Positions 56,702-63,594 of a DNA stretch of 64,000 nt are shown one piece after another. The notes under the pieces were generated by a model. It ran no database searches, was not told the origin of the DNA, and worked only from the letters and a program-made list of their open reading frames with translations. Source of the stretch: a bacterium (GTDB lineage: Bacteria > Zhuqueibacterota > Zhuqueibacteria > Residuimicrobiales > Krinioviventaceae); the NCBI GenBank assembly GCA_963693055.1, contig OY843751.1, positions 448,001-512,000 of the forward strand, read 5' to 3'. Position numbers and translations under genes: made by a program. Numbering within the stretch: the stretch's first letter is position 1; each line of letters begins with the position of its first letter.

Positions 56702-56926
56702 AAGCCCCCACTATTTTTTAATTATCAGGGTTAATTTAGATACACCATAGCATAGGATTTATTTAAAAATATAATCAAAAATATGAGTGATTTAAAGAAC
56801 TTTTCGATATGTAAAGCATTATAACAGTAACACCAAGTTGATTTGTATTGTATTAATTGCTATTTTGAAAGATATATTGTAGTATTTTAGGGATTTTGAT
56901 TGGATAATAAAAAATACTGCAAAATT

Positions 56927-56954
56927 GGGAATAATACCGGATTCCGGTTGTCTA
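56927..56954 (+). promoter_or_regulatory. ECF-sigma-type promoter (putative autoregulatory)
   Basis: GGGAAT-N17-GTCTA; near-copy at 58629. Confidence 0.65.
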
Positions 56955-56972
56955 AATGTTAAAGGGCGAGTT

Positions 56973-57524
56973 ATAGAAAAGACTGACGCACAATTATTGC
57001 GTGAGGCGCGCGAGGAAAGTGGTGATTCTTTTAACGAGCTGGTTAGGAGGTACGAGTCCCGTGTAGCTGCGACCGTAGTGGGAATGTTGGGACGATGCCC
57101 TGAAGCAGATGACGTAGGCCAGGAAACGTTTATCCGGTTCTACAAAGCCATGCATGATTTTCGTGGCGATGCGGAATTGGGAACGTATTTGACACGGATC
57201 GCCATTAATTTGTCATTGAATGAATTGAAAAGGAGAAAACGCCGGTTTCAGGTGTTTCCCAAATCTACAGATTCAGTGCATGACATGACAGATGACAGCA
57301 TAAATCCTGATGCAGGTGACACCAAAACAGTGATCAACAAGGCTTTACAAAAGCTGGAACCGGATTTTAGATCAGTTATTGTACTGCGGCTTGTACAGGG
57401 ATATTCCACAAAAGAGTCAGCAGCAATGCTGAATATTCCCGAGGGAACCGTACTGTCACGGTTGGCCCGTGCGCAATTAAAGTTAAAAAAAATACTCGAA
57501 CCCTTAATGGGAGAGCAAGAATGA
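56973..57524 (+). CDS. ECF sigma-70 factor (start codon uncertain)
   Basis: DAQLL, ADDVGQETF, YLTRIAIN region 2; LNIPEGTVLSRLARA region 4. Confidence 0.9.
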   Translation: MEKTDAQLLREAREESGDSFNELVRRYESRVAATVVGMLGRCPEADDVGQETFIRFYKAMHDFRGDAELGTYLTRIAINLSLNELKRRKRRFQVFPKSTDSVHDMTDDSINPDAGDTKTVINKALQKLEPDFRSVIVLRLVQGYSTKESAAMLNIPEGTVLSRLARAQLKLKKILEPLMGEQE

Positions 57525-57958
57525 AGAAAATGCAGGAACTGTTAATACGATCTTTTGATCAGATCCTGTCAGTGAAGGAACAGCAGGAACTGGACCAGGC
57601 CCTGGAACAGTCAGAAGAGCTTCGCCAGGAAAAAGAACAGCTTGAAAGCATGCGAAATCTTTTATCAGCAGGGGCAGAAGAGTCTTTTCGGCCCATGTTT
57701 GCTGAACGGGTCATGAACCGGATAACAACCAAAAGTGCGCGGCAACCCACCAGTGAAATGGAGTTTTTTGATTCTCTTTTGCATATTTTTCGCAAAGTTG
57801 CCATTGCCGGTGCTATAGCAATTGTGGTGCTTGCTTCGGCTCAGTTGATTGTAAATAATCCATCTACAACAACAACTGCAACGAAGAATGTATCTGAAAT
57901 GTCATTGGATGATGTGCTGGTTTCCGCATTTATTTCCTCAATGGAGGATATACTATGA
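57521..57958 (+). CDS. Putative anti-sigma factor
   Basis: Overlaps the sigma stop codon; helical N-terminus, FAERVM, single TM. Confidence 0.75.
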   Translation: MKKMQELLIRSFDQILSVKEQQELDQALEQSEELRQEKEQLESMRNLLSAGAEESFRPMFAERVMNRITTKSARQPTSEMEFFDSLLHIFRKVAIAGAIAIVVLASAQLIVNNPSTTTTATKNVSEMSLDDVLVSAFISSMEDIL

Positions 57959-58473
57959 CCGTACAGACCAAATCTTCATTAATACTGTTAGTGACACTGC
58001 TTTTGGGGATAATGATTGGCGCCCTGGGAATGAACTTTTATAAAAATCAGAGGATGGTGCAATTCAAAGATTTCAGAGAGCGTGAAATGTTTATGGGACT
58101 GCATGAGCGTATTATTCAGCCCCATTCCGAAGCACAACGCGATTCTATTATGCAGGTGCTGGATAAATATTTACCCCGTTTTAAAGAATTGCATGAAAAA
58201 AATAAAGACGAGATAGCAGTTATTATAGATTCGTTGCAAAATGATCTAAAACCAATTTTATCTGAGGAACAATGGCAGCGATTGATTGAGCGGCGTGAAC
58301 GTATGGACCGTTGGGGCGGTCCGGACAAGTTTGGTCCTCCCCCCGGCGACAGACCTTTTCCCGGTCCACATGAGGGAAAAGACTGGAAAGATCGCAGACC
58401 TCCGGGGCCTAATGATATGCCCCCGCATGGAGGTGATGGCATGCGTCCGCAGCCCCCTCAAGCTCCTCAATAA
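57955..58473 (+). CDS. Membrane-anchored periplasmic accessory protein (Spy/CpxP-like helices, Pro/Gly tail)
   Basis: N-terminal TM, LSEEQW motif, Pro-rich tail; coupled to the anti-sigma gene. Confidence 0.6.
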   Translation: MTVQTKSSLILLVTLLLGIMIGALGMNFYKNQRMVQFKDFREREMFMGLHERIIQPHSEAQRDSIMQVLDKYLPRFKELHEKNKDEIAVIIDSLQNDLKPILSEEQWQRLIERRERMDRWGGPDKFGPPPGDRPFPGPHEGKDWKDRRPPGPNDMPPHGGDGMRPQPPQAPQ

Positions 58474-58489
58474 GCGTATATACAAATTT

Positions 58490-58526
58490 AAAAAGGTGGT
58501 TCGATAATTCGGAACACCTTTTTTTT
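58490..58526 (+). terminator. Intrinsic terminator
   Basis: aaaaaggtggttcg-ataatt-cggaacacc followed by a T run. Confidence 0.7.
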
Positions 58527-58628
58527 ATTAAAAAAAATAGTTCCGTTTTTCTTCGTTATGGCCCTAACCTCTTGTATATCTTGATAAATAGGTATATTGA
58601 ATTAATTGCAATGCATGTAACCTCTTTT

Positions 58629-58657
58629 GGGAATGTTACCGGATTTGGGATTGTCTA
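58629..58657 (+). promoter_or_regulatory. ECF-sigma-type promoter
   Basis: GGGAAT-N18-GTCTA, sharing taccggatt in the spacer with the 56927 copy. Confidence 0.65.
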
Positions 58658-58714
58658 ATTTTCGTAACAGGTAATAAAGGAGAATAATCAAATCATTTAC
58701 CAAAGGAGAAAATC

Positions 58715-59851
58715 ATGAAGAAAAGAGCTTTTATCAACACGGCGGTTACGATAATATTTTTGTTCGGGCTTTTATTTTTTGGGGAAGAAATTCTATTGGC
58801 TCAACCCGGTAATGGAATGGGGCATCACGATGATAAAGGAATGCACGCATCATTTTTTGAATTGCTCACAAAAGATCAGTTAGCGGAAATACAATCACTT
58901 GTTGAAACCCTGCGAGAAGCGGGCAGTGACCGTGAGGCGGTTCGTAAAGCTGTGGACGCCAAATTGGACGAGTGGGGTGTTGAGCGCCCGGAACCCCCTA
59001 AAGGTGGTGGACATGGTATGCATGGTGGTCCTTTTGCGGATCTGACAGAAGAACAGCGTGCCGAACTGGAGACGCTCGTTAAAACCCTGCGCGAGGCGGG
59101 CAGTGACCGTGAGGTGGTTCGTAAAGCTGTGGACGCCAAGCTGGACGAGTGGGGTATTGAACGCCTGGAACCTCCGGAAGGGGGAAGATATGGCGGTCCC
59201 GGTAAACACGGAATGCCTTTTAAAGATTTGTTGACCGATGAACAGCAAACAGAGCTGGAGACCATGATCAGTAGCATGAGAGATGCCGGCAGTAGTCGTG
59301 ACGAGGTTCACGAGGCAGTAGAGTCTAAACTGGAAGAGTGGGGTATAGAGATCCCTGAGAAACCAGATCAGAACATTCATGAAGCTATGAAGGGCTTGAC
59401 AGCGGATCAACGCAAACAGGTACACGAGCTGGTCAAAGACATGCATGAGCAGGGAGCTGAACGTAAAGTAATTCAGGACGCAGTCAAGAGTATGTTGGAA
59501 TCGTTTGGGATAGAAATGGGTGACAGTTCCGAATCCGGTGATTCGAAAGTCGAAACTCAAAACAATTATGGAAGTACAATCCTGGCTGCAAGCAATTTCC
59601 CCAATCCTTTTAATCCTGAAACCCGGATCAGTTTTGAGCTGGGTAAAGCCGCTAGAGTAAGAGTGTCTGTTTATAATGTTAAAGGCCAGCTGGTAAATAC
59701 CTTGATGGATGAGTATCGTAATGAAGGGACCTGTCAGGTACAATGGAACGGAACGCTGGGAAATGGGGATACCGCGCCTTCGGGTATGTATTTTTTTAAA
59801 ATAAATGCCGATGATGAAACATTAACTGAAAGCATGTTATTAATGAAATAA
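58715..59851 (+). CDS. Secreted protein with four helical repeats and a C-terminal FlgD-like/T9SS-type sorting domain
   Basis: LTxxQxxE...LRxAGxxRE.V..AV..KL.EWG repeats; NFPNPFNPET...SGMYF...MLLMK. Confidence 0.85.
   Translation: MKKRAFINTAVTIIFLFGLLFFGEEILLAQPGNGMGHHDDKGMHASFFELLTKDQLAEIQSLVETLREAGSDREAVRKAVDAKLDEWGVERPEPPKGGGHGMHGGPFADLTEEQRAELETLVKTLREAGSDREVVRKAVDAKLDEWGIERLEPPEGGRYGGPGKHGMPFKDLLTDEQQTELETMISSMRDAGSSRDEVHEAVESKLEEWGIEIPEKPDQNIHEAMKGLTADQRKQVHELVKDMHEQGAERKVIQDAVKSMLESFGIEMGDSSESGDSKVETQNNYGSTILAASNFPNPFNPETRISFELGKAARVRVSVYNVKGQLVNTLMDEYRNEGTCQVQWNGTLGNGDTAPSGMYFFKINADDETLTESMLLMK
58898..59175 (+). repeat. Intragenic direct repeat, 177 bp period
   Basis: aaaccctgcg.ga.gcgggcagtgaccgtgagg.ggttcgtaaagctgtggacgccaa..tggacgagtggggt present twice. 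Confidence 0.85.
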
Positions 59852-59956
59852 GGAAAATTTTCCGGTAGGTTTTGGAAAAAAGGCGGTTATTTCATATAGT
59901 ATTTACTAGAAGTAACCGGAAGTCAAACAAAGATTTTAAAACTTACCGGAGGACAA

Positions 59957-60784
59957 ATGTACAATACTCGTAGTAGTTTGTATGACAGGATATTAGAAAA
60001 AACACCCGAGCAAGTATTCATCAATTCTTTACGAAAAGAATTTGAATTATCACCGGCAGAAAGTAAAGGGATATTGGATTTAGCCAAGCAGTGTTTATTT
60101 GGCGAGGTTCCCCAGACAGTTGGTAAAATAAAATATATCTGCGCATCCACCAAGGCAAAACATGGCAAGCCCCTGGGTGAGCAGGAATTGAAAGAAGTAG
60201 AGTTAACACTGGATGCCGGTGTAGAAGATTTAAATGTATTAAAAGAAAGCGGTCCCAAGGCACTGCGCCAGTTAAAGGTCTTACGATTGACCGAAGAAGC
60301 CTGGGATCAGGAAGGTTCTTTGACACAAGAGGATTTGGCCCGGATCCTCCAGGTTACGAGCCGCACTGTACGCCAGGATATAAAGTCTTTGCAGACTGAT
60401 GGCAACTTTATTCACACGCGCGGAACAGACCATGACATCGGTCGGAGCTTGTCACACAAAAGCCACATTATTGAACTGTATTTGCAGGGAGACACATACG
60501 ATGCAATTATTCGTAAAAGTCGTCATAGCGCGTTTTCAATAAAACGATATGTGTGCAGCTTTGGCAGGCTGTTGTTATTACTGAATCATGGTATGCAGGA
60601 TATCAAAGAGATCAGTCGGTTATTAGGCCAAAGTGAGCGTTTGACCCGTGAGTACCTGGATATTTTTGAGCATCATAAACAGGGTGACAAATGGCCGCCG
60701 ATCTATGTAGAGTTATTGGAGCAATTAAAGGTGTTATACCCCTCGAAAAAAAAACAAACCAAGGAGGGGATCGATGAAGACTAA
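59957..60784 (+). CDS. DUF1670-like protein A1
   Basis: EAWDQEGSLTQEDLARIL HTH; TRG..HDIG..LSHK; RHS..SIKRY. Confidence 0.8.
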   Translation: MYNTRSSLYDRILEKTPEQVFINSLRKEFELSPAESKGILDLAKQCLFGEVPQTVGKIKYICASTKAKHGKPLGEQELKEVELTLDAGVEDLNVLKESGPKALRQLKVLRLTEEAWDQEGSLTQEDLARILQVTSRTVRQDIKSLQTDGNFIHTRGTDHDIGRSLSHKSHIIELYLQGDTYDAIIRKSRHSAFSIKRYVCSFGRLLLLLNHGMQDIKEISRLLGQSERLTREYLDIFEHHKQGDKWPPIYVELLEQLKVLYPSKKKQTKEGIDED

Positions 60785-61589
60785 GCCTTTAAATCGTTAT
60801 GAATCAATAGCTAAGCGTAGCTTTCAAAATGCGATTATTCGATTACTGGAAGAAAATTATAAAATGCTGGGAAGCCACAAAGTCATCCGGATGATTGCGG
60901 AAGATATTGTCGCATTGCAAAATGAATTTTATCCAGAGCTGGAAAAGAAAAGTTTTGGTCAGATTATCTGGCGGACAACCAAAGCGACAAACCGAAAGCC
61001 AAGCTATGGCACAAAAGCGGAAGATTATGAGGTTCAGACAGTTGTGCTACCGTTGGTAACAGATGCGGATATTGACAATCGTATCAAAAGCCATTATTCT
61101 TATCCCCCAAAAGATGGCAGTGCTAATTATGAAAAACAAACAGAACGGGATATTAAAGTAATGGCGCGGTTATGCAAGAGTGCGGCAGAACAGGGCGGCT
61201 GGTTGACAGGTGCAGAACTCAGTGTATTGTTGAATCGCTCATTAAACACTATTGGTCGGTATATGACAATTTATCATGAAACGCATGATGATATATTGCC
61301 GACTAAAGGAATGATGCTGGATCAGGGCAGTAAGCCGACGCATAAAGCCGCAATTATAGATTTGTACGAGCAGGGATATCCCGAACCGGATATCGCCCGG
61401 ATTACAAATCACACAATTGAATCAACGAGTCGGTATTTAAAGAGTTACAAGAACGTAAAATCATTATTGGAAAAAGGTTTTAATTTAATGGAAATGGTAA
61501 GAATAACCGGATTAGGACGGAGTACAATATTACAATACCGTGATCTGGTTTATCATTATCATTCAGATTTAATACAAAAGAAAACTTGA
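60774..61589 (+). CDS. DUF1670-like protein B1
   Basis: SAAEQGGWLT..ELS.LL; PTKG...D.G..PTHK; NHT..S.SRY; RBS aaggagg. Confidence 0.8.
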   Translation: MKTKPLNRYESIAKRSFQNAIIRLLEENYKMLGSHKVIRMIAEDIVALQNEFYPELEKKSFGQIIWRTTKATNRKPSYGTKAEDYEVQTVVLPLVTDADIDNRIKSHYSYPPKDGSANYEKQTERDIKVMARLCKSAAEQGGWLTGAELSVLLNRSLNTIGRYMTIYHETHDDILPTKGMMLDQGSKPTHKAAIIDLYEQGYPEPDIARITNHTIESTSRYLKSYKNVKSLLEKGFNLMEMVRITGLGRSTILQYRDLVYHYHSDLIQKKT

Positions 61590-61620
61590 AAATTTGAAAA
61601 GGAATTAATAGGTTAGGTTG

Positions 61621-61680
61621 TCATTGTTTTTCAGCTAACTCCAGTCGCCCTACGAGCTCCTTTCGTTAGCTGAAAAAATG
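61621..61680. other. Long stem-loop downstream of B1, inside element 1
   Basis: tttttcagctaac...gttagctgaaaaa 13 bp stem enclosing tccagtcgccctacgagctcctttc. Confidence 0.7.
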
Positions 61681-61862
61681 AATAAATGTTCTAATCTTAA
61701 AAACAACCTACCGGAAATATTTCCTAAACGTAAATAGTATCATATGACCAGAGGAGAAAAAGAAATTTATAAAACCCCCTAAAAATACAACGGAGCGTCA
61801 GATCATTAATAAATTTGGTGATCTGTCATTCTGAAAGTAATAAAAGGGAAATATAAAAGCAA

Positions 61863-62687
61863 CTAATTGTTCTTTGAAAGATTCAACTGACTCCTTTGAT
61901 TTTTAATTTTATCAGGCAAAAGATCAACATATTGTTGTATGACACGTTTGGAAAGTCTTGCCAGCTGGCTGATTTGATCAAGGTTTTTAATGTCATGCTT
62001 CCAAAGTAATTCAACACGATGGTAATCTTTGATATACCTGTCAACCGCTTCGTTGCTGTGTTTGGTTTTCAAAGCGATTTCGGGAGTGAGATATCCCTCA
62101 AGATACAGAGTGATAATTTCGCGTTTATGAGTAATAGCGCCGGAAAGATCATGGATGTTGCCACGCGTTGGTAAGAGATGCCCTTCTTTTTGGATTTCAT
62201 TTACATATTTACTGACAACGGCATCACAGACACCGAGTAACATAGCCAGGTCAAGTTGAGTAAGCAGAGCACCTTGATCAAAAGCTTCATCAACCCAACG
62301 TTTGAGGCGTCTTTTCCTTAAAGTTTTGGAATCAAAACCATGCGCGATATGAGAAGTATCCTGATCAGTAATGAAAGAGAGGACAACGGGTTTCATTCGG
62401 GTAGCGGCAATACTTTTTCCGCGTTTGGGGTATTCATCGACAGGAACAGCCATCCAGACGAGTTGCCCATAGTGAATATGGTGCAAGTCATCATCAATAG
62501 AGGAGACAAGGAAATAGTCATCAATGATTTTAAGGATATCATCAATGATGGCATTGGCAGTGATGGCTCCTTTGTCATAGCCATAGCTATTCAAAAAGTT
62601 GTACAGTAGTAACTGCTTGAGATCTTTATCTTTAAGTCGTCTCATTTTTTTGAGTTGAATTTGTTCTTTAGTCAAAGGTTTACTCAT
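61863..62687 (-). CDS. DUF1670-like protein B2
   Basis: EAFDQGALLTQLDLAMLL; PTRG..HD...ITHK; KHS..AVDRY; RBS aggagg. Confidence 0.8.
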   Translation of the reverse strand: MSKPLTKEQIQLKKMRRLKDKDLKQLLLYNFLNSYGYDKGAITANAIIDDILKIIDDYFLVSSIDDDLHHIHYGQLVWMAVPVDEYPKRGKSIAATRMKPVVLSFITDQDTSHIAHGFDSKTLRKRRLKRWVDEAFDQGALLTQLDLAMLLGVCDAVVSKYVNEIQKEGHLLPTRGNIHDLSGAITHKREIITLYLEGYLTPEIALKTKHSNEAVDRYIKDYHRVELLWKHDIKNLDQISQLARLSKRVIQQYVDLLPDKIKNQRSQLNLSKNN

Positions 62688-63519
62688 TTTCTTTGCCTCC
62701 TGATAGATGTTGAGGAATGGATTTTTTTTTCGCGTCGCCACCAGGTTCCGCAGGAGATAACAGATCGTTTAATCGCGTATTGTTTTGTTGAAGATAGGTT
62801 TGGTAGAGTTGGATATACTCGCGCACCAGGCGGTCGGATTTCTTTGCAATGAGTCGAATCTGGTTCGGAGAGAAATTTTCCTTGTATAAAAGGGCGATCT
62901 GCATAAAGTCAGCGAGGTAACGTTTGATGCTGGTTTCAGAATGATTGGTTTTTTGTTCTATTTCTGAAAAGGTATAACCTTTAAGATACAGATCAATAAT
63001 GATGGTTTTATGAGACAGTCCGGGACCCATGTCATGTTTCATACCTCGTGTCATGATAAACATACCGTGATGACGGAGATGATAAATGTCACGTTTAACA
63101 GTGGCCGGACTGGTGGTTAAAAGCATTGCCAGGTCTTCATAGCTGAGTAAAGCACCCTGATCATAGGCTTGTCGAGTCAGACGGGCGATCCGGTGTCGTC
63201 TAAGTCCGGCAAGGCCATAATTAGCCAGGGCTTGCAGATCTGTATTAAAGTCAATTAGTTTGAGACGGACCGTAAGCTTTCGGGTTAATCTGATATGTTT
63301 GCCGGCTGGTTCTTCAGCGGCAACAGCTTCATAAGCGACTTCACCTCCTGATAATGAAATGTTGGAATGTTCCTGAAAGTATTGGTCAAATTGTTGATAG
63401 TAAGCTTCGGCAATAATAGGAGTCAAATTGAAATCCTGAGACAGTTTTTGGACAATAGCGTTTTTAGCTGTCTTGGATTCGAGTCTTTTTAAACCATAAT
63501 TATTTTTAACATCTGCCAT
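62680..63519 (-). CDS. DUF1670-like protein A2
   Basis: QAYDQGALLSYEDLAMLL; TRG..HDMG..LSHK; NHS..SIKRY; RBS aaggag before ATG 63519. Confidence 0.8.
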   Translation of the reverse strand: MADVKNNYGLKRLESKTAKNAIVQKLSQDFNLTPIIAEAYYQQFDQYFQEHSNISLSGGEVAYEAVAAEEPAGKHIRLTRKLTVRLKLIDFNTDLQALANYGLAGLRRHRIARLTRQAYDQGALLSYEDLAMLLTTSPATVKRDIYHLRHHGMFIMTRGMKHDMGPGLSHKTIIIDLYLKGYTFSEIEQKTNHSETSIKRYLADFMQIALLYKENFSPNQIRLIAKKSDRLVREYIQLYQTYLQQNNTRLNDLLSPAEPGGDAKKKSIPQHLSGGKENE

Positions 63520-63594
63520 AAGAATCTCCTTATTTCTGTTTTTATTAAAACAATGATTCCTATGGTCATATGCACTAAACTTTAAATAGTTTAT

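Follow-up and report, generated by a model that had tools for sequence, protein, structure and literature searches.

Two neighbouring DUF1670 elements at the end of a host gene

Contig OY843751.1 of the assembly GCA_963693055.1 (Zhuqueibacterota, family Krinioviventaceae) carries two DUF1670 elements of about 1.9 kb, one directly after the other, within the stretch from position 448,001 to 512,000. This stretch of 64,000 nucleotides is the window, and its coordinates are used below unless the contig is named. The elements begin in the last codon of a host gene (58715..59851, + strand) coding for a protein of 378 amino acids with a C-terminal secretion tail of the FlgD-Ig/Por type; the left end of element 1 restores the last codon and stop of this gene (AAA TAA). 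Near the end of the host gene is a motif (59828..59845, + strand; consensus AAnnTnnTnnTnnTn, codons K-M-x-x-x) that fixes the insertion point, and this motif is followed by a 2-bp core, AA, at the left junction (59846..59847, + strand).

Element 1 (59848..61731) is of type 1, with CCGG repeats, and measures 1884 bp plus the core. Its left subterminal inverted repeat (59851..59871, + strand) lies 3 bp from the core and its right one (61705..61725, - strand) 6 bp from the next core, and between them are gene A (59957..60784, + strand, 275 amino acids) and the overlapping gene B (60774..61589, + strand, 271 amino acids). A second AA core (61732..61733, + strand) separates it from element 2 (61734..63583), which is of type 2, with CATATGACC repeats, and measures 1850 bp plus the core. 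The left inverted repeat of element 2 (61741..61755, + strand) reaches 61736 by way of a one-base gap, and the right one (63558..63572, - strand) reaches 63576, with the core 7 bp beyond. Its two genes, B (61863..62687, - strand, 274 amino acids) and A (62680..63519, - strand, 279 amino acids), are oriented opposite to the host gene. The right junction (63584..63589, + strand) contains the third AA core and the original codon end and stop of the host gene, AAA TAG, as established from an empty allele described below.

The original prediction, made from the sequence of the window, had described two units of this size with these inverted repeats, and every string that it quoted was found where it had placed it, as was AAATA at 59846, 61732 and 63584. 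Joining the ends of either unit at the core leaves 11 bp between the repeats, again as predicted. The repeats are identical at 19 of 21 positions in element 1 and at 14 of 15 in element 2, and in neither case did any of 60 shufflings of the end regions equal the score. Open reading frames and Pfam matches show that the interior of each unit consists of two DUF1670 genes and nothing else; all four proteins match Pfam DUF1670 with E values of 1e-47 to 1e-62, in agreement with the family proposed for them. The two units belong to different types, which bears out the suggestion that two diverged family members occupy one site.

Multiple copies and empty sites

The source genome is a complete single contig and contains 26 DUF1670 genes, forming 13 pairs at 12 sites. 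Seven of these are copies of unit 1, of which six show 0-4 differences over 1881 nt and one is about 92% identical; the other six, copies of unit 2, show not a single difference over 1847 nt. The copies have identical ends and unrelated flanks. A genome of the same genus, G085, is empty at all six of the sites tested (of 12), which cover 7 of the 13 copies and include the locus in the window; here its host gene continues directly into the sequence that follows 63584 and ends in AAA TAG. The mobility that the original prediction had proposed, and the empty allele in a relative that it had called for, were thus both found. G085 has a type-1 copy of its own, the flanks of which are without a close counterpart in the source genome. 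Where copies have diverged, they differ mostly by synonymous changes (30:11 and 47:16). It is as good as certain that both units are real, recently active, multi-copy insertion sequences.

DUF1670 was found in 33 of 167 genomes of the phylum and, above the family cut-off, in 17 of 251 genomes sampled from another phylum. At E <=1e-30 a DUF1670 profile search returned 362 clusters, a number that rises to 2383 at 0.001, where generic helix-turn-helix (HTH) proteins are probably included. The nearest titled homologues belong to candidate division KSB1, and the same ends and target were found in records titled KSB1, Ignavibacteria, Bacteroidota, Poribacteria, Marinimicrobia and Cloacimonadota. Other DUF1670 pairs were checked for repeat and core boundaries, and 20 type-1 and 35 type-2 elements share ends and target. 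A search of plasmids gave no match.

Elsewhere on the source contig (1346328-1350145), two tail genes converge, and a unit-1 and a unit-2 element occupy their ends with about 65 bp between them, an arrangement that is not a single-site stack; both sites of this neighbourhood are empty in G085. The contig also contains isolated element ends at 1730449(+), 5975650(+), 5684747(-), 3844073(-) and 333434(+), four of them type-1 left ends and one a right end. By eye, the four left ends follow tail-type gene ends; the remnants are traces of older insertions that still provide the stop codon of the host gene.

Insertion into the last codon of secretion-tail genes

In the source genome, 11 of the 12 insertions fall in the final codon of a gene ending in a FlgD-Ig/Por-type secretion tail; at the remaining site, a copy of unit 2 is intergenic. 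The left end of the element completes both codon and stop, leaving the host protein unchanged. Tail-ending open reading frames number 239 in this genome and 159 of them end in lysine, as do all 11 of the genes hit (p 0.011). The predicted site specificity stands in that other copies occupy the same target; this target is not a unique attachment site, but one of about 240 secretion-tail gene ends.

The same preference is seen more widely. Among 134 distinct left junctions from genomes and metagenomes (a sample collected by means of one narrow peptide pattern and a single end pattern, and thus biased to two subfamilies), 113 have the Y-F-Y motif of the tail 19-20 codons upstream; the other 21 miss this pattern, some being tails by eye and some off-target. 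Where Y-F-Y is one codon more distant, the insertion point does not move (4 cases), and in genes shorter by one codon the insertion falls inside the stop codon (loci L205, L208, L227 and L250). The proximal motif directly upstream therefore determines the insertion position. Another repeat-type group, that of L157, likewise inserts at the ends of tail genes.

A 2-bp core shared by element and target

The comparison covered 65 gene pairs with enough flanking sequence (20 type-1, 35 type-2 and 10 unclassified). In all classified elements the third base of the interrupted codon is A on the left, but on the right 19 of the 63 targets that were reconstructed have G; the empty allele of G085 shows that this G on the right belongs to the target. 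The third base is thus element-derived on the left and target-derived on the right, and exchange is therefore confined to 2 bp. The AAATA core originally proposed is a shared core in its first two bases only, AA, the remaining ATA being the element's own end, which rebuilds the stop codon. A 5-bp core or duplication is excluded by the third-base G and by the empty allele.

The dinucleotide is not always AA. In at least 80 metagenome loci, 76 distinct left junctions comprise 60 with AA, 6 with TA, 4 with AG, 3 with CG and one each with TG, GA and CA. Sixteen metagenome elements among the matches listed have both ends visible, and 14 of these have equal dinucleotides (AA in 11, the others CG, TA and AG); the two mismatched junctions are AA/AG and CA/AA, and locus L031 may be a third, its parse being ambiguous. 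Second copies of the AG and CG elements were not found in their draft genomes. In a phylogenetic tree of B proteins, which covers those elements whose B protein was usable (60 of 114), the four TA elements form one clade, as do two of the three AG elements; the element with CA/AA shares 95% identity with AA elements. The dinucleotide is thus inherited with the element lineage (AA, TA, AG), and this inheritance, together with the mismatches, favours a crossover over a duplication of the target. A crossover at a dinucleotide borne by the element, which we consider likely, would leave junctions that usually match, with donor bases occasionally retained on one side and target bases on the other.

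A pair of HTH-rich proteins tied to its own ends

The four proteins of the window share 30-34% identity in five of the six pairwise comparisons and 38% in the sixth, over partial alignments. In a tree of the subunits, from which one record with fused A and B frames was left out, the B subunits form one clade, and all eight groups defined by subunit (A or B) and by repeat type (four types) are monophyletic, with support of at least 0.994. As repeat type co-segregates with protein clade, each protein pair is tied to its own ends. Further repeat types with protein clades of their own were seen (L033-L035, L040, L043 and L046; L157, L162, L166 and L170), and those other than the L157 group seemingly have different targets.

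Across 54 sequences of A and 55 of B, the residues R113, Q121, D163, H170, Y201 and Y235 never vary, and H193 is present in 108 of these 109. In a set of 105 diverse sequences H170 remains invariant and R113, H193 and Y201 are each present in 104. At position 169 subunit A mostly has S and subunit B mostly T, and no serine is invariant. The spacing of H170, H193 and Y201 (H-22aa-H-7aa-Y) loosely recalls the tail of tyrosine recombinases; the conserved histidines are 23 residues apart and do not form an H-hydrophobic-H motif.

Natural fusions of two and three DUF1670 modules offer a view of which residues are lost together. The first module is without R158, D163 and H193 in 21 of 24 fusions, and these 21 modules have mostly lost H170 (2 keep it) and Y201 (3 keep it) as well, with R113 kept; the later modules retain D163, H170, H193 and Y201 in 28 of 28 cases. 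When a module persists but its polar residues disappear together, this is typical of an active site that has been inactivated. No additional catalytic domain was found in the long fused relatives. One sequence named a GIY-YIG endonuclease at its source (P0002) contains, according to Pfam, just two DUF1670 modules and HTH pieces. The three-module forms (L098, L112, L115; P0121, P0122, P0125, P0126) have either a fused double DUF1670 gene with a longer third gene or all modules fused, in proteins of 930-950 amino acids; ends were not found for them, and a search at L115 gave no convincing repeats.

The structure predicted for gene A of element 2 (predicted local distance difference test score, pLDDT, 88.5; predicted template modelling score, pTM, 0.62) comprises a pair of N-terminal helices, a ribbon of two strands, a winged HTH and two further HTH units. 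For neither the full model nor residues 1-121 did Foldseek find a match at E <=0.001. In a wide structural search no match reached a Z of 8, and the best 50 rows included neither a recombinase nor a transposase, which leaves room for such folds. A match to topoisomerase VI A (Z 5.8) was rejected, covering the winged helix only. Sequence searches of solved structures returned HTH-like or chance matches only, and the Atlas held no match above 0.81 outside DUF1670. For residues 1-121, most of the top Foldseek rows are HU/IHF proteins, none of them significant (E 0.07-1, template modelling score <=0.31, root-mean-square deviation about 9-14 A). If real, an HU-like module that dimerises and bends DNA would explain why the pair is obligatory, a weak lead drawn from the model.

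How the elements may move

The observations above are best accommodated, with a probability that we put at about 0.6, if these multi-copy insertion sequences enter the last codon of their targets and rebuild its stop, with the two DUF1670 proteins acting as a joint recombinase by way of a circular intermediate and a crossover at the 2-bp core. Proteins A and B would form a heterodimer, the HTH domains of which would bind the subterminal repeats; the pair would read some 18 bp upstream of the core as DNA, without a guide RNA; the ends of the element would be joined into a circle, and this circle would cross over with the target at the core. The candidate active site is the set R158-D163-H170-H193-Y201. 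That the target is read by protein, no guide RNA taking part, seems very probable, and there is a good chance, if a slightly lesser one, that the pair is itself the catalyst. The tyrosine Y201 is the likeliest nucleophile of the set, an assignment that remains tentative and falls a little short of even odds.

Circle junctions were sought in the source genome, in 331 loci and in viral contigs, and none was found; nor were any present in the Logan contigs of eight runs, which is no evidence of absence, as contigs drop rare forms. Two candidate joints in Logan contigs had a short side of 21 letters that fits other loci of the genome and were set aside, and two type-1 circle-pattern matches among the 331 loci proved to be insertions placed before end remnants.

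Several points weigh against a DUF1670 recombinase of this kind. Pfam and NCBIfam recognise no catalytic domain in the proteins, the only matches besides DUF1670 being of the HTH type, and matches to PHROGs are weak and mostly to HTH proteins and regulators. The best structural matches of the model are ordinary winged or tri-helical HTH single domains (Z <=6.6); the stretch from H193 to Y201 fits a standard HTH, so that these residues could serve in packing or in binding DNA. When profiles were compared with six tyrosine recombinases of the source genome, the probability was 0.4%, and the degenerate modules of the fused proteins may stem from one loss event. As to the core, the AG element L029 groups apart from the other AG elements, and the two mismatches among 16 could be later point mutations of a 2-bp duplication. 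As to the target, the proximal motif alone reaches the median target score at 470 positions of which only 72 are tail ends. With 60 bp of context, 64 positions reach that score and 62 of them are tail ends. Since the proximal motif selects too loosely, purifying selection or a contact further away must contribute to the specificity.

Among the alternatives, the one that fares best is that the DUF1670 pair only binds ends and target, and that a host enzyme (a topoisomerase, XerC/D, a resolvase or a transposase acting in trans) does the cutting. The HTH-only domain content just described is what such a division of labour would predict, and the source genome does encode one serine resolvase and seven tyrosine-recombinase (integrase) matches. 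We nevertheless regard a host enzyme as unlikely, since the same ends and target recur across all six of the titled groups named above and the invariant polar residues are lost together in degenerate modules; the IS110 transposase domain, PF01548, was moreover not found in the complete source genome.

Rather improbable is a system like that of IS1111, in which a non-coding RNA would guide the choice of target and DUF1670 would be an RNA-guided recombinase. Asymmetric subterminal repeats and a dinucleotide core are features of IS110/IS1111 too, as far as the available parts of PMC11187229 and PMC11208160 describe them. In addition, a near-consensus promoter-like site (TTGACA-17-TATACT or close) faces outward, 102-136 nt from the end, in the 3' region of all nine distinct Poribacteria elements (L116, L117, L121, L124-L128 and L130). 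It could drive the element's genes across a circle junction, and a small RNA there is also possible. Two near-identical Poribacteria elements, L126 and L130, sit at targets other than tails, one of them in a hairpin loop, and one of the two differences between their 3' regions (AAACCG versus AAACCC) echoes these targets, in different registers, probably by chance. Against a guide stands the fact that non-coding regions do not align across lineages and that a relative with seven copies and the same target has a non-coding stretch of just 42 nt downstream of gene B and one of 90 nt upstream of gene A, counting the repeats. Computational tests, of limited power, are negative as well: the longest match to an element's own target averages 7.17, compared with 6.99 +/- 0.14 after shuffling (33 of 300 shufflings reach it; the targets being similar, this test is weak), and target-like 10-mers are not enriched (mean z 0.34; above 2 in 3 of 45). 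Rfam has no match in the non-coding DNA of the elements, and the Poribacteria 3' region lacks covariation support for a structure.

The least probable, by a small step, is a cut-and-paste or copy-paste transposon of the IS630/Tc1 kind, with an acidic active site that escaped recognition and a target duplication of 2 bp. The equal dinucleotides (14 of the 16 metagenome elements listed and every classified type-1 and type-2 element) and the conserved D94, D129 and D163 would agree with this view. It is opposed by subterminal, asymmetric repeats (at 3 and 6 bp from the core in one type, at 2 and 7 bp in the other), by a dinucleotide that tracks element lineage, by two mismatched junctions with the usual AA on one side, and by a model with just two long strands, too few for an RNase H-like sheet.

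Relationship to known mobile elements

In IS607 and the large serine integrases, crossover takes place at a central dinucleotide that must normally match between the partners, without duplication. The DUF1670 elements likewise have a central 2-bp core common to donor and target; unlike them, they have no resolvase catalytic domain (PF00239 is found on none of the four proteins, an HTH_7 DNA-binding piece on one) and no invariant serine. Indeed, the absence of DDE, HUH, serine-recombinase and integrase motifs noted in the original prediction is upheld by Pfam and NCBIfam searches of the four proteins, in which Pfam found no PF00589, Y1/Y2 transposase or DDE transposase. The elements thus differ from IS200/IS605/IS91 in having neither an H-hydrophobic-H motif nor a Y1/Y2 domain, and from IS630/Tc1 in that the repeats are not terminal and no DDE domain is recognised by sequence.

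The closest resemblance in junction geometry is to the IS1111 group of IS110 elements (ISEc11; IS621 for the core), which, in the accessible portions of PMC11187229 and PMC11208160, are small insertion sequences with asymmetric subterminal inverted repeats, a specific and oriented target, no additional bases and a short core common to both junctions. The ends of IS1111 elements lie 7 and 3 bp outside the repeats and their non-coding region is essential (PMC11187229), and IS621 recombines at a core dinucleotide (PMC11208160). Unlike IS110/IS1111, the DUF1670 elements have no DEDD transposase by Pfam and two paralogous genes rather than one; their repeats are of 15-21 bp with an 11-bp junction spacer, compared with 11-13 bp and extensions of 7 and 3 bp in IS1111, and no conserved long non-coding region or guide was found in them.

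A paralogous-protein operon between imperfect inverted repeats, with a specific target, is also typical of SE elements, Tn554, GInt and RIT; in these, junction bases are exchanged with the target rather than duplicated, and some relatives carry one module without conserved residues, according to the parts of PMC10214605 at hand. Unlike these elements as they are described there, the DUF1670 elements match no RHRY tyrosine-recombinase profile, exchange 2 bp rather than 6 bp and are of 1.9 kb without cargo. The target recalls Tn7, the TnsD protein of which reads non-wobble positions of the glmS end at attTn7, so that in both cases a conserved 3' coding end marks a harmless, oriented insertion point (PMC2918618, seen in part). 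The genes for TnsA, TnsB, TnsC and TnsD are not among the two genes of the DUF1670 element, which inserts inside the last codon rather than about 25 bp downstream and has about 240 candidate genes per genome rather than one.

Junction geometry is thus like that of IS1111 and serine integrases, target logic like that of Tn7 and partnership of paralogues like that of RIT and SE elements, and the defining protein test of each of these systems failed. Literature searches under DUF1670, PF07900 and broader terms, with supplements, most subscription papers and ISfinder outside their scope, gave no description of such elements. Known insertion sequences use few catalytic folds, and these widespread, recently active elements match none of them by sequence. 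The chances are about even that DUF1670 represents a fifth class of prokaryotic transposase beside DDE, DEDD, HUH and serine/tyrosine enzymes, with a heterodimer of HTH modules, its own R-D-H-H-Y active site, a circular donor, a 2-bp core and a degenerate coding motif as target.

For the DUF1670 elements the ends are now known exactly, alleles without the insertion are on record, the target is defined, and there are candidate residues for an active site. Should the pair prove to be the enzyme, this would add a new chemistry of DNA recombination and a function for a Pfam family of unknown function, in the form of a compact (about 550 amino acids), scar-free, oriented integrase that requires a match of only 2 bp. 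Since annotation tools look for known transposases, such elements would be missed in surveys of genomes.

Order of insertion and minor features of the window

Element 2 was probably the first to arrive, and element 1 would then have reused its left junction, which keeps the whole upstream motif. With a position-weight matrix of the proximal motif, the end of the host gene scores 9.5 and the right end of element 1 scores -3.0, which makes this order the most likely one; the reverse case, with element 2 targeting the right end of element 1, was judged less likely by the same score. An arrangement of type 1 followed by type 2 recurs at locus L213, and at L082 and L084 elements are placed before older left-end remnants. 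Counting against this order, which remains uncertain, one copy of unit 2 occupies an off-target site that scores only -2.4.

Directly inside the left repeat of element 1 is a promoter-like site, TTGGAA-17-TATAGT (59872..59900, + strand), recognised by its match to the consensus; similar sites are visible in the 5' regions of related elements. The 5' non-coding region of element 1 also contains two extra copies of the ACCGGA repeat core (59909..59952, + strand), which are likely to be additional binding or autoregulatory sites. Many type-2 elements have an inverted copy of the inner half of the terminal repeat that overlaps the start codon of gene A (63512-63530 in the window) and is likewise a probable autoregulatory site. 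A hairpin is predicted in the 3' non-coding region of element 1 (61627..61677, + strand; region z -3.8); it is missing in a relative with seven copies and is therefore not essential to the family. Its core (61637-61667) recurs at 2227121-2227146 and 2152972-2152997 of the contig and also appears as a short high-depth contig in other metagenome runs, being shared with other repeated DNA. Within 56925-59851, an extracytoplasmic function (ECF) sigma factor gene and two small genes precede the host gene, the product of which has repeated helical units with a match to Metal_resist.

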